Positions 1 to 56,331 of a stretch of 64,000 nucleotides of DNA are shown here, one piece after another. The stretch is from an uncultured Alphaproteobacteria bacterium. GTDB lineage: Bacteria; Pseudomonadota; Alphaproteobacteria; HIMB59; GCA-002718135. A program made the position numbers and the translations under genes. The notes beneath the pieces are model-generated. The model saw only the letters and a program-made list of their open reading frames with translations, made no database searches and was not told the DNA's origin. The stretch's first letter is position 1, and the number at the start of each line of letters is the position of its first letter. Location: assembly GCA_902521325.1 (NCBI GenBank), contig CABYRE010000002.1, forward strand, positions 40,588-104,587, written 5' to 3'.

Positions 1-653
1 AGTGCGTGAGCAGCAGATCCCCAATAACCAAATGCCTCATCCCAACTATGCTCCTTACCAGTGTAGTAAGCCCCTTCTTTATATGGAGCATTATTTGGTT
101 TTTGACCAATTTCCATTTTACTTCCAAGATAACTGTTTACAGCTTGGTTATAAAAAACAGCTCCCATAGCAAACTTTGATATTAATTGAGTGTAATCAAA
201 ACCAGTAGATGGATCAAAACCACCTTCAACTTCACTTGCCTTAAGCATCATATGTTCAATAGCTTCTGGACCTGTTAGATTACCCCAACCAGGAATATAT
301 CCTTTGTACATTTTACCTGAAAGGTTTCCGCTACCTATTTCTGAAACCATGGTTTGTTTAACTGGAAAACCATCAGCAGATTTGGGAGCTATTATTTCTA
401 AACCATCTTCTCCATTATAATAGGACATCATTTTACCTAGATCACCTGTTTTCACTAAAGCTTTTAAACTGTCATGTAAAACTTGTCTGGCCATCTGACC
501 CGTATATTTCACTGAGTTTGTTTTATCACCGTCATAACCTTTTAAAGTAATAGGGTAAGGTCCATAAACTTCTGGACCATGACCATCTGCAAAAGATTTA
601 GAAAAGCTGAAAGAAAAAACTAAAGCAGTAGCAATGAGTAATATTTTTTTCAT
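1..653 (-). CDS. Secreted protein, N-terminal part only (gene runs off the window start). Resembles the DUF4856-type periplasmic family.
   Basis: Absent from the ORF track because it is truncated. The reverse-strand ATG at 653-651 gives MKKILLIATALVFSFSFSKSFADGHGPEVYGP... (signal peptide) and the frame stays open to base 1. It ends ...KEHSWDEAFGYWGSAAHA, a motif I associate with DUF4856. AAGGA lies about 9 nt upstream of the ATG. Confidence 0.6.
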   Translation of the reverse strand, partial: MKKILLIATALVFSFSFSKSFADGHGPEVYGPYPITLKGYDGDKTNSVKYTGQMARQVLHDSLKALVKTGDLGKMMSYYNGEDGLEIIAPKSADGFPVKQTMVSEIGSGNLSGKMYKGYIPGWGNLTGPEAIEHMMLKASEVEGGFDPSTGFDYTQLISKFAMGAVFYNQAVNSYLGSKMEIGQKPNNAPYKEGAYYTGKEHSWDEAFGYWGSAAHA

Positions 654-682
654 GTATATTTTTCCTTATTTGTAAATTTTTT

Positions 683-778
683 CTTAGTTTAAGGGTGTGG
701 AGATGAGTTGAAACTCGTTTGGTTAAGATGCGCCTTTACCTTTAAAAAGATTAATCATCTCCACGTCCTATTACTAAG
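683..778 (-). promoter_or_regulatory. Candidate structured 5' leader RNA (riboswitch-like or attenuator-like) of the secreted-protein gene.
   Basis: Nested complementarity on the minus strand. Outer helix CUUAG/CUAAG pairs 778-774 with 687-683. A 10-bp helix GUGGAGAUGA/UCAUCUCCAC pairs 764-755 with 706-697. Inner hairpins are 740-721 (GGUAAAG-GCGCAU-CUUAACC) and 716-705 (GAGU-UUCA-ACUC). Confidence 0.4.
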
Positions 779-896
779 GATCTAAGATGCTTTTATAATA
801 ATTTAAAAAACAGTTTTTTTTATTTTATTTACTCAATGTTTATAGGCAAAATCAGATATATTTAGATTTATTCTAATTTAAAGGTTTTTTAAAATA

Positions 897-953
897 GGTG
901 GTTAGAAATCGTAATATTAAATGTGAGTTATAATGTTATAAAAACTAACCACC
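897..953. other. Long-range 9-bp GC-containing inverted repeat (hairpin) in the non-coding spacer.
   Basis: GGTGGTTAG (897-905) pairs with CTAACCACC (945-953) around a 39-nt AT-rich loop that contains the direct repeat TTATAA/TGTTATAA. On the minus strand it is followed by CUAUUUUAAAAAA. Confidence 0.4.
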
Positions 954-1088
954 ATGGAACGGAAGTAGACTTATTTATAGGTAAAAATTAATATTTATGT
1001 AAAAAAAAATTATTTTTGATCTTATAAAATAGATATTTAAGAATTTTAGAACTATTCTAATTAAAAGTAATAGACGTTCATTATAGAT

Positions 1089-1106
1089 GGGGCCTCAGAG
1101 GGCCCC
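1089..1106 (-). terminator. GC-rich hairpin just downstream of the sHSP stop; probable terminator.
   Basis: GGGGCC-TCAGAG-GGCCCC, an all-GC 6-bp stem starting 10 nt after the TAG stop (1118-1116). There is no clear U-tract, so confidence is moderate. Confidence 0.5.
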
Positions 1107-54065: not shown

Positions 54066-54652
54066 TTTTTTGAATATAAATAATCTAGCAAATTAAATAA
54101 AGGCAATCCCATAACATTAAAATAATCTCCTTTTATGCTCTCAATAATATTGGGCCCCAAGCTCTCTATTTGATAACACCCAACAGAGCTTAGTATTTGT
54201 TTACCTGTTTTTTTTAAGTATGTTGTTATTTCACTGTTATTAAGCTTTCTTATTTTAACCTGGGTTTTTTCGTAATTTTCCCAAACTTTAGAACCATTCA
54301 AACAAATAGTTAAGCCCGATACTATTAAGTGTGTCTTTCCTGATAGAGACTTGATTTTTTTTTGGGCTTTCTCAATAGAGTTTACTTTATCTAGAATTTT
54401 TCCATTGTGATAAATGACTGTATCACAGCCCAAAACAATCTTATTGGCATACAATTTTTTTATACTTACACTTCTTGCTTTTTCATAGGAAAGTTTTTTT
54501 GCAAAAATCTCAGGCTTTGTATTTCTATTAATAGTTTGTTTAATATCCTCTTCATTGCAATTTGGTTTTTTTTGTGTGAAATTTAATCCTGCATTTTTTA
54601 ATATTTTGTATCTAGATTTGCTTGAACTGGCTAATATAAATTTTTGGTGCAT
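54062..54652 (-). CDS. maf: Maf-like nucleoside-triphosphate pyrophosphatase.
   Basis: Contains FILASSSKSRYKIL, GCDTV and GCYQIE. I trimmed the track start from 54685 to the ATG at 54652 (MHQKFILASSS), where Maf homology begins. Confidence 0.8.
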   Translation of the reverse strand: MHQKFILASSSKSRYKILKNAGLNFTQKKPNCNEEDIKQTINRNTKPEIFAKKLSYEKARSVSIKKLYANKIVLGCDTVIYHNGKILDKVNSIEKAQKKIKSLSGKTHLIVSGLTICLNGSKVWENYEKTQVKIRKLNNSEITTYLKKTGKQILSSVGCYQIESLGPNIIESIKGDYFNVMGLPLFNLLDYLYSKK

Positions 54653-55074
54653 AAGTGTGTTAATAAAAGTTATAGTTATAAACACTATTAAATATAATTT
54701 GAATTTAAGAAATAGTTCTTTTGTTTTAAAAATGTGTTGCTAACAACTTAATAACTTGTCTGAATATTATAGGGTGGGTGTTAATATATTTATTATACAA
54801 AATTAATAACAAATTATTAGATATTTATTGCGTTGCAAATTATTTAAAAATAATAATTTTTTTTCAATATGCTTTAAATTAACATATTTGTTAGGGTTGT
54901 TATTCATATGTTGGTAAATTAAGGATGATACAATAATAAAGCAGTAATTAAGGTTTTTAACCTTACAACTAATACTACAATTAAATATATAAATTATATA
55001 TTTATTATTATTTTGACATTAACTTCAATTTTGATTATTAAAATATTTCATTTCTTAACCACCCCAACAACATT
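54653..55074. other. Candidate chromosomal replication origin (oriC). May also contain the rho promoter and leader.
   Basis: A 422-bp non-coding spacer, about 16% G+C over 54781-55020 by hand count. Transcription is divergent on both sides, the gene neighbourhood is the alphaproteobacterial ori-flanking one, and parS-like sites lie 2.4-2.6 kb away. There is no perfect DnaA box. Confidence 0.45.
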
Positions 55075-56331
55075 ATGAATCTACAGGAATTAAAAGGAAA
55101 AGAACCACAAGAGCTTTTAAAACAGGCAGACAAGCTTGGTATAGAAAACCCTTCATCACTTAGAAAGCAAGATTTGATGTTTGCAATTTTAAAAACAATT
55201 GCTGAAGAAGGTGAAATTATCACTGGTTTAGGGGTTATAGAAATTATGCAAGATGGTTTTGGTTTTTTAAGGTCTTCAGAGTCAAATTATCTTCCAGGAC
55301 CAGATGATATTTATATTTCTCCATCACAAATTAAAAAATTTAGCCTAAGAACTGGTGATAGCGTAGAAGGTGAAATCAGGTCTCCCAAGCAAGGGGAAAG
55401 ATATTTTGCTATAACTAAAATTAATAAAATAAACGGTCAAGAAACTGAATTAGTTAAAAATAGGGTTAATTTTGAAGATTTAACACCATTGTATCCTGAA
55501 GCAAGATTTAGACTTGAACAAGAAAAACCTACGCCGGATAATACAGAAAGAATAATTGATATTATCGCTCCTCTTGGAAAAGGACAAAGACAGTTGATAG
55601 TTGCACAACCGTTTACTGGTAAAACAATAATTATGCAAAAAATTGCTAATGCTATAACCGCTAATAGTCCTGACGCTAAACTGATTGTTCTGCTAATTGA
55701 TGAAAGACCAGAAGAAGTTACAGACATGCAAAGATCAGTTAAGGGTGAGGTAATTAGCTCAACCTTTGATGAGCCTGCTTCACGCCACGTTCAAGTTGCA
55801 GAAATGGTAATTGAAAAAGCTAAAAGACTGGTTGAATATAAACACGATGTTGTAATCCTTCTTGATTCAATTACTAGACTTGGAAGAGCTTATAATACTG
55901 TTGTTCCATCTAGTGGAAAAGTGTTAACTGGTGGTGTTGATGCTAATGCCTTACAAAGACCAAAAAGATTTTTCGGAGCTGCAAGAAATGTTGAAAAAGG
56001 CGGATCACTTACAATTATTGCTACTGCTTTAATAGATACAGGAAGCAGAATGGATGAAGTTATATTTGAAGAATTTAAAGGTACTGGTAATAGTGAAATG
56101 GTTCTAGATAGAAAACTTAGCCAAAAAAGAACTTACCCAGCTTTTGATATTGGTAAGTCAGGAACAAGAAAAGAAGAATTATTACTTGATAAAGACGAGC
56201 TTGGAAAAATCTTTATTTTAAGAAAAATATTAGCCCCAATGGGAAGTACAGAAGCCATGGAGTTCTTGTTAGATAAAATGAAAAATACAAAAACTAACAG
56301 CGAGTTCTTCCAAAGCATGGGAACTAAATAA
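55075..56331 (+). CDS. rho: Transcription termination factor Rho.
   Basis: N-terminal [12 protein letters not shown], plus an RNA-binding domain, the P-loop region [10 protein letters not shown], and ...[11 protein letters not shown].... Confidence 0.93.

Follow-up and report, generated by a model that had tools for sequence, protein, structure and literature searches.

A covarying two-hairpin leader RNA upstream of a DUF4856 gene and a putative iron-uptake operon in marine Alphaproteobacteria

A conserved, strand-specific RNA structure occupies the 5' leader of a DUF4856 gene at one edge of the window (the whole 64-kb stretch of alphaproteobacterial DNA analysed here). Its conserved architecture consists of a 4–5 bp hairpin, P1 (780–766), and a long irregular hairpin, P2, separated by a single linker base. 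The core of the element is kept in 40+ orthologous spacers, always immediately upstream of the same DUF4856 gene, and it is probably a lineage-specific, cis-acting 5'-leader RNA that would control message stability or translation. We describe it as a new candidate among cis-regulatory leader RNAs, of a general kind that is already familiar: simple, attached to a single gene and confined to one clade. A preliminary description of this DNA had seen no resemblance to the riboswitch classes it considered, and database searches agree: Rfam 15 gave no match when the whole window was searched at gathering thresholds, and a search of 500–1300 with permissive filters and E ≤ 10 placed nothing on 683–790. 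The ROSE and fourU families, in particular, had no Rfam match to the element, and no description of the P1/P2 motif was found in the literature searched.

Genomic setting of the element

The spacer that carries the element (654–1115, read on the minus strand) is 462 nt long and lies between an Hsp20/IbpA gene (1601–1116) and the start of the DUF4856 gene; on a crude ORF map it is the longest ORF-free gap in the window. The element is 37.5% G+C, the window as a whole 30.6% and the spacer 25.3%. Past base 683 there are 15 nt to the AAGGA core of the ribosome-binding site (667–663). At the other end of the spacer, directly after the Hsp20 stop codon, stands a GGGGCC-CUCUGA-GGCCCC hairpin (1089–1106, minus strand) followed by a weak U-tract, which is likely the hsp20 terminator; a sub-threshold SraG match at 1106–1089 was set aside as this same terminator. 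Among the two next-longest gaps in the window is a 389-nt ORF-free stretch (54686–55074) upstream of the rho gene (55075–56331), a leader region that likewise had no Rfam match. Long leaders are common for rho.

In relatives, the DUF4856 gene is followed by genes for an FA_hydroxylase-like membrane protein, an SBP_bac_6 periplasmic binding protein and a 535-aa double-domain permease, with an ABC ATPase gene convergent to the DUF4856-led genes. This gene order is the layout of ferric-iron-type ABC transporters, from which we infer an iron substrate; NCBIfam matches all fell under the family cut-offs. For the DUF4856 protein itself, a search for a relative in the PDB returned none, and no mention of DUF4856 was found in the literature searched. 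The features of the locus are collected in Table 1.

Table 1. Features of the DUF4856 leader and its surroundings, in window coordinates.
Feature	Position	Strand	Remarks
DUF4856 gene, 5' part	1–653	-	Pfam PF16148; secreted protein; gene continues past window edge
DUF4856 start codon	651–653	-	direct reading
Ribosome-binding site UAAGGA of DUF4856 gene	663–668	-	direct reading
Outer helix 3' strand ACUAAG, type A only	683–688	-	near-invariant (first base A/G), in variable A/U-rich linker
P2 3' arm AACUCAUCUCCAC, includes CUCC; pairs with 753–764	697–708	-	folds and alignments
P2 apical hairpin, GGUAA(A)..(A)UUACC-type, A-A mismatch	721–740	-	minimum-energy fold and type-A RNAalifold consensus
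P2 5' arm GUGGAGAUGAUU; perfect 10 bp at 764–755	753–764	-	both-side changes across types
Linker P1–P2, single base C	765	-	types A and B have C, types C and D have U
P1 hairpin: UCCU 780–777, loop UAGUAAU 776–770, AGGA 769–766	766–780	-	in all four sequence types
Outer helix 5' strand CUUAGU, type A only	773–778	-	overlaps P1; also complementary to ribosome-binding site
-10-like hexamer TATAAA	792–797	-	TAnAAA-like in all four types
ICE/Irr-box-like palindrome 2, TTAGAATAAATCTAA on minus strand	862–876		one mismatch to TTAGAA-N3-TTCTAA
ICE/Irr-box-like palindrome 1, TTAGAATAGTTCTAA on minus strand	1046–1060		perfect core match; kept in relatives

Predicted fold of the window RNA

Direct reading confirmed that every stretch quoted in the preliminary description had been placed correctly on the minus strand. 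The outer helix, CUUAG (778–774) with CUAAG (687–683), extends to 6 bp (CUUAGU, 778–773, with ACUAAG, 688–683); GUGGAGAUGA (764–755) pairs with UCAUCUCCAC (706–697) over a perfect 10 bp; and GGUAAAG..CUUAACC forms a hairpin at 740–721 with a single A-A mismatch. A repeat finder reports the same region as an imperfect inverted repeat of 24 nt (683–706 with 755–778). The 96-nt RNA has a fold energy of −29.2 kcal/mol, against −13.3 ± 2.9 kcal/mol for 200 dinucleotide shuffles (z = −5.55), none of which matched it (0/200); the folding of the window element is more than chance, and the identical fold is retained in a 161-nt context. In this fold, the RNA forms one long interrupted hairpin with the 6-bp outer helix at its base and GG/CC pairs (768–767 with 694–693) between the outer helix and the 10-bp helix.

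The layout resembling a three-way junction that had been proposed for the element falls, because its second inner hairpin, GAGU-UUCA-ACUC (716–705), shares bases 706–705 with the 10-bp helix of P2, appears in neither the minimum-energy nor the centroid fold and is not kept in relatives. The fold is either the long interrupted hairpin or P1 plus P2. In the window's sequence type, P1 competes with the outer helix. The apical hairpin at 721–740 shows one-sided changes only; its sequence is kept within the window's type and is absent as such in the three other types described below.

Distribution and sequence types

A protein-guided scan for relatives, restricted to one genome per species, yielded 80 loci. 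The 33 closest (78–99% protein identity) are from uncultured marine Alphaproteobacteria and include single-cell genomes (AG-xxx, AH-xxx) and metagenome-assembled genomes (MarineAlpha5), some of them labelled Pelagibacteraceae at NCBI. A degenerate DNA pattern built on the conserved 5' half additionally retrieved 17 metagenome contigs, and in 17 of 17 the match lies directly upstream of the same DUF4856 orthologue. Together, loci and contigs provide 43 distinct leader sequences, which fall into four types: type A, the window's own (AGAUCCUUAGUAAUAGGAC-GUGGAGAU...), type B (AGAUUCUCAAUAAGAGGAC-GCGGGAGC...), type C, found in locus L020 (GACUUUUUACGAGUC-U-GUGGGAGCUAA...), and type D, found in locus L022 (UUCUUUAUGAAAGAA-U-GUGGGAAA...).

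The P1 loops of these types read UAGUAAU, AAUAA, UUUAC and AUG, and the P1 sequences of types C and D are unrelated. Common to all four types is a P2 base with a G-rich 5' side and a C-rich 3' side. The basal arms of P2 (a conserved 8–10 bp) stand 32–56 nt apart, a length that varies between types; the P2 interior and apex are unalignable among types A, B, C and D, and the internal loops share no conserved nucleotides. P2 is followed by ACACCC in type A and by A-rich sequence in types B–D. One further relative, L017, has an 84% identical DUF4856 protein and is without P1/P2; at the corresponding place in its leader (2905–2941) lies an unrelated hairpin with a perfect 15-bp stem, of GAAGACUAGCUUAAA/UUUAAGUUAGUCUUC type and with z −3.6. 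What is conserved is structure, not sequence, as the unrelated P1 of types C and D and the non-homologous hairpin of L017 illustrate.

Within types the sequence constraint is strong. Over the 5' 28 nt, type A shows no variation and type B almost none (L030 excepted), next to spacer sequence that is only ~50–60% identical. The P1 loop, A-R-U-A-A, and the linker follow the same pattern, and the 3' arm and flanks vary. Several close relatives (L028–L032 and L100) lack the P1/P2 hairpin although the gene is present, with an ICE-like box or half-site, so the element is dispensable. It is also absent from the SAR116, Rhodobacteraceae and Gammaproteobacteria loci and from the Pelagibacteraceae orthologues L059, L062 and L064.

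Covariation and strand

Because an all-type MAFFT alignment misplaced the 3' arms of the longer types, pairs were counted per type and in a joint, model-fitted alignment (alignment A6 is fitted to the model structure). In the alignment of types B and C (19 sequences), 97.6% of cells are paired and six pairs are changed on both sides; 0 of 500 shuffles were as good, and slid partners left ~46–55% of cells paired. In the type A alignment (17 sequences), 96.7% of cells are paired and three pairs are changed on both sides, with examples at 757/704 (U-A to C-G) and 756/705 (G-C to A-U). The joint alignment of 36 distinct sequences has 95% of cells paired and both-side changes in 13 of 18 pairs. Much of the covariation reflects a few deep splits between types, the independent events being fewer than the cell counts suggest. 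P2 accounts for both-side changes across types in 8 of its 11 pairs (~96–98% of cells paired vs ~45–56% with slid partners), and types A and B differ on both sides at five P2 columns of the joint alignment. For P1, both-side changes occur in two of five pairs in alignment A4 (U-A to G-C and U.G to A-U, both in L020) and in three of five in the joint alignment.

RNAalifold recovered P1 and P2 independently from types B and C; from type A it returned the outer helix, the GG/CY pairs, P2 and the apical hairpin. G.U pairs number 33 vs 5 for A.C, with no A.C in P1 or in the nine basal P2 pairs. Pairing has thus been kept on the strand that is sense for the DUF4856 gene, which favours RNA over a DNA palindrome. 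A covariance model built from types B and C only returned the type-A copy of the window as its sole significant match in 64 kb (25 bits, with a rough E-value of 0.011; the next match scored 10.7 bits), and on 632 kb of fetched loci 49 of 49 covariance-model matches fell at the single spot upstream of DUF4856. The orthologous spacers, to which the preliminary description had pointed as the place where its claim could fail, show both conservation and covariation of the helices; with the G.U excess, they bear out a conserved, strand-specific RNA structure in the DUF4856 leader.

Outer helix and alternative pairings in type A

The outer helix fared less uniformly. All 17 type-A sequences can form its six pairs, whereas types B, C and D have nothing equivalent. 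The changes within type A are two, both one-sided and only of the kind U-A to U.G; the helix is compatible with the data, unproven and lineage-specific.

The type A segment UCCUUAGU has three possible partners: within P1, with the decoy ACUAAG of the outer helix, and with the ribosome-binding site UAAGGA. In the window, the corresponding conformers are predicted at −26.4 (P1), −30.7 (decoy) and −27.3 (ribosome-binding site) kcal/mol, within ~4 kcal/mol of one another. Complementarity of 780–773 to UUAAGGA is above shuffles in type A only (z −2.8 to −5.2), and a general anti-Shine-Dalgarno model was discarded as the pairing does not exceed chance in types B, C and D. An extended pairing against the ribosome-binding site, seen by eye in some type-B subtypes, was also rejected: it is gone in L096 and L097 and is non-significant. 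The ribosome-binding site is predicted to be open in the default state, with an unpaired probability of 0.89 in the window and of 0.47–0.89 in 13 of 14 sequences; L020 has a predicted 0.09.

Promoter and iron context

A TAnAAA-like hexamer lies 10–15 nt ahead of the first paired base of P1 in 45 of 45 distinct upstream sequences, covering all four types. Because the -10-like hexamer of the window lies at 797–792, transcription would start at ~785–781, leaving 1–4 unpaired nucleotides before P1, so that the mRNA would begin with the element or within a few bases of it.

Further upstream, two palindromes fit the Irr/ICE consensus, TTTAGAA-N3-TTCTAAA (PMC1698941), and are conserved in orthologous promoters, which suggests control by Irr. 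Palindrome 2, centred ~88 bp upstream of the putative start, varies little or not at all among the spacers of types A and B, and in these two types the ICE-like boxes are the best-conserved parts of the spacer besides the RNA elements. Each box is followed ~75 bp on by a TATAAA-like hexamer and then by a hairpin-containing leader. A third ICE-like site (54288–54302) lies inside a Maf-like coding region and was rejected as probably due to chance.

For Ca. Pelagibacter ubique, Fur control of the Fbp operon and a minimal Irr regulon have been predicted (PMC1698941); the iron-uptake operon of the present clade therefore seems to have moved under Irr-type control. Among loci L034–L080, SAR116-type and gammaproteobacterial orthologues have classical Fur-box-like sequences, such as TTGATAATGATTATCAATT in L072, and several Rhodobacteraceae loci have other palindromes near a TTGACA box. 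The DUF4856 gene thus looks iron-regulated in many lineages via different regulators, a reading supported by the Fur-box-like sequences before its distant orthologues.

A second conserved block and a 119-aa ORF

The spacer holds another near-invariant block between the two ICE-like boxes (890–968, minus strand), CUACUUCCGUUCCAU-GGUGGUUAG-N39-CUAACCACC-UAUUUUAAAAAA. It contains hairpin arms at 953–945 and 905–897, whose closing pair runs from G-C to G.U to A-U in relatives, and its fold has z −2.8; no Rfam match to this block was found. In type-B loci, a hairpin that looks homologous by eye occupies the same place. As a partner RNA for the P1/P2 leader the block was rejected, its duplex energy being no better than that of shuffles (z −0.4).

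Type-B loci and loci L006 and L007 also have a 119-aa ORF between ICE boxes 1 and 2 (L081, 5965–6324; L006, 2409–2768). In L006 and L007, the block is a leader that runs directly into this ORF; in the window's lineage the ORF is lost and the block kept. The ORF product had no Pfam or NCBIfam match, and the ORF has no Shine-Dalgarno sequence. By eye, its C-terminal half resembles a winged-helix DNA-binding domain, and it may encode an iron-regulated regulator.

Proposed function and alternative explanations

Possibly, control of the operon is layered. Iron probably switches operon transcription through the two upstream Irr/ICE-like boxes, and the leader RNA would add a post-transcriptional layer in cis. 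The 5'-terminal stem-loops could mask the 5' end of the mRNA, giving protection from 5'-end-dependent decay, and could stop the leader from annealing to the ribosome-binding site. High, stable expression would result once the promoter has fired. In type A, the alternative pairings of UCCUUAGU might furthermore act as a translational toggle in the window's lineage. We tentatively prefer this reading of a 5'-terminal stem-loop module that would protect the message and insulate the ribosome-binding region, and consider it plausible rather than probable. The sequence constraint on the 5' half of the element is more than passive protection by a hairpin would require, which points to a specific partner. 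Such a partner could be a trans-acting factor that reads the invariant 5' half and, depending on iron status, alters how the operon mRNA is translated or degraded. It might be a small RNA or an RNA-binding protein such as apo-aconitase or a cold-shock-type chaperone. This reading is possible, if doubtful. It accords with the 5' 28 nt, invariant or near-invariant in the two main types amid diverging flanks, with the complementarity of the type-A 5' segment to the ribosome-binding site, with conformers at most ~4 kcal/mol apart and with the CUCC of the P2 3' arm, an anti-Shine-Dalgarno-like tract. It also has a precedent in a different lineage: in Ca. Pelagibacter ubique iron limitation decouples transcript and protein levels, and action of CspE and CspL on mRNA structure has been proposed (PMC2864753). 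However, the unrelated P1 sequences of types C and D leave no family-wide recognition sequence, pairing against the ribosome-binding site is at chance in types B, C and D, and the neighbouring RNA block lacks complementarity to the leader (z −0.4). A loop like that of the iron-responsive element is also missing, the motif CAGUG being absent by direct reading throughout 786–651. The iron-responsive element that aconitase binds combines a CAGUGN hexaloop with a bulged C five pairs below.

A riboswitch in which a small ligand (Fe2+, heme or another metal species) changes translation would suit a 5' leader that is GC-enriched, structured and conserved and that precedes transporter genes in a streamlined genome. 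The lack of any known-class match leaves room for a new class, and the type-A alternative pairings could act as an expression platform. The element, however, consists of two plain hairpins with no multi-helix junction, and a shared ligand pocket is unlikely because no nucleotide of the P2 interior, with its internal loops and apex, is conserved across the four types. A terminator is absent, the ribosome-binding site is open by default with no conserved sequestration, and the distribution is that of a single gene in a single clade; nothing supports a metabolite riboswitch, and we regard a small-ligand sensor as very unlikely. An RNA thermometer of the ROSE or fourU kind, whose Shine-Dalgarno sequence pairs within a marginally stable hairpin, does not fit: the ribosome-binding site is predicted to be mostly unpaired and lies outside P2, which is very stable. 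A terminator or attenuator was rejected as well, a scan for intrinsic terminators giving 0 sites in 500–1300 and P2 being followed by ACACCC or A-rich sequence instead of the U-tract of an intrinsic terminator. The inverted repeats could alternatively be a DNA operator bound by a transcription factor immediately past the promoter. In each of the four types the P1 region forms a near-palindrome of 15 bp (~+4 to +18), and the conserved 5' half adjoins the -10-like box, a position often bound by repressors. Yet the excess of G.U over A.C (33 vs 5) shows complementarity on one strand only, half-sites are wholly changed between close relatives with pairing retained, and the type-variable spacing of the P2 arms (32–56 nt) is incompatible with a fixed protein footprint, making an operator slightly more improbable again than a ligand sensor. 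As for leader-peptide attenuation, by which translation of an 11-codon upstream ORF (758–723) would control the DUF4856 gene, the ORF is indeed present (AUG 758–756 to stop 725–723, with an AGGA-like tract upstream). Its AUG, however, is buried in the stable P2 stem, is lost in 9 of 17 type-A sequences (GAUGA to GAUAA or GGCAA) and is absent in types B and C; with the terminator also absent, this earlier suggestion has next to no chance of being correct.

Significance

Over much of the ocean, bacterial growth is limited by iron, and the streamlined Alphaproteobacteria described here carry very few regulators and hardly any non-coding DNA to spare. A conserved, covarying RNA before an iron-uptake operon, beside Irr-type boxes, suggests a second, RNA-level layer of control. 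If it is regulatory, the leader would give a concrete basis for iron responses at the post-transcriptional level, for which the related lineage SAR11 has so far provided only inferences. If it is only a stabilising stem-loop, it would be a clean new example of its kind and a useful marker in metatranscriptomes for the 5' end of the operon. That the P1/P2 leader is an RNA switch responsive to iron status, read by a protein or small RNA or directly by a metal or heme ligand, and that it gates translation or decay of the operon, we consider unlikely. Were it so, the leader would gate the main iron-uptake operon of a marine alphaproteobacterial clade that is abundant and has streamlined genomes, and could be the missing physical element behind the decoupling of transcript and protein in SAR11 under iron limitation.

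Comparison with known systems

The hairpin of the E. coli ompA 5' UTR is a 5'-terminal stabiliser stem-loop. Such a stem-loop starts within ~0–4 nt of the mRNA 5' end. Like stabilisers of this type, the present leader has one or two stable hairpins a few nucleotides from its putative 5' end, followed by an unstructured, A/U-rich ribosome-binding region, and it retains structure rather than sequence between distant variants, with a non-homologous hairpin in the same place in L017. It differs in that conservation of the loop and linker sequences within types exceeds what a stabiliser needs, and here the 5' end is predicted from the position of the -10-like hexamer. Type A also recalls the platforms that alternate between Shine-Dalgarno, anti- and anti-anti-Shine-Dalgarno pairings (ROSE, fourU and many riboswitches), with three pairings of UCCUUAGU close in energy; unlike those platforms, the ribosome-binding site is open by default, the arrangement is missing in types B–D and there is no aptamer-like core.

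On the promoter side, the locus resembles systems regulated through Irr and ICE boxes, with two consensus-matching palindromes of which box 2, ~88 bp before the putative start in both main types, is at a distance compatible with activation. The likeness is one of promoter and not of RNA, and the P. ubique Fbp operon is predicted to be under Fur. A parallel for an RNA at such a locus also comes from Ca. Pelagibacter ubique, where a GC-enriched, unnamed intergenic region upstream of sfuC has been listed (Meyer et al. 2009, PMC2704228, Table 1) and a putative structured region upstream of sfu has been mentioned by authors who link it to a possible post-transcriptional response to iron shortage (Smith et al. 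2010, PMC2864753). Although the sfuC region was listed and never defined as a motif, and belongs to another lineage with another gene order, the two share a candidate structure placed before an iron ABC-transporter locus in a streamlined marine alphaproteobacterium.
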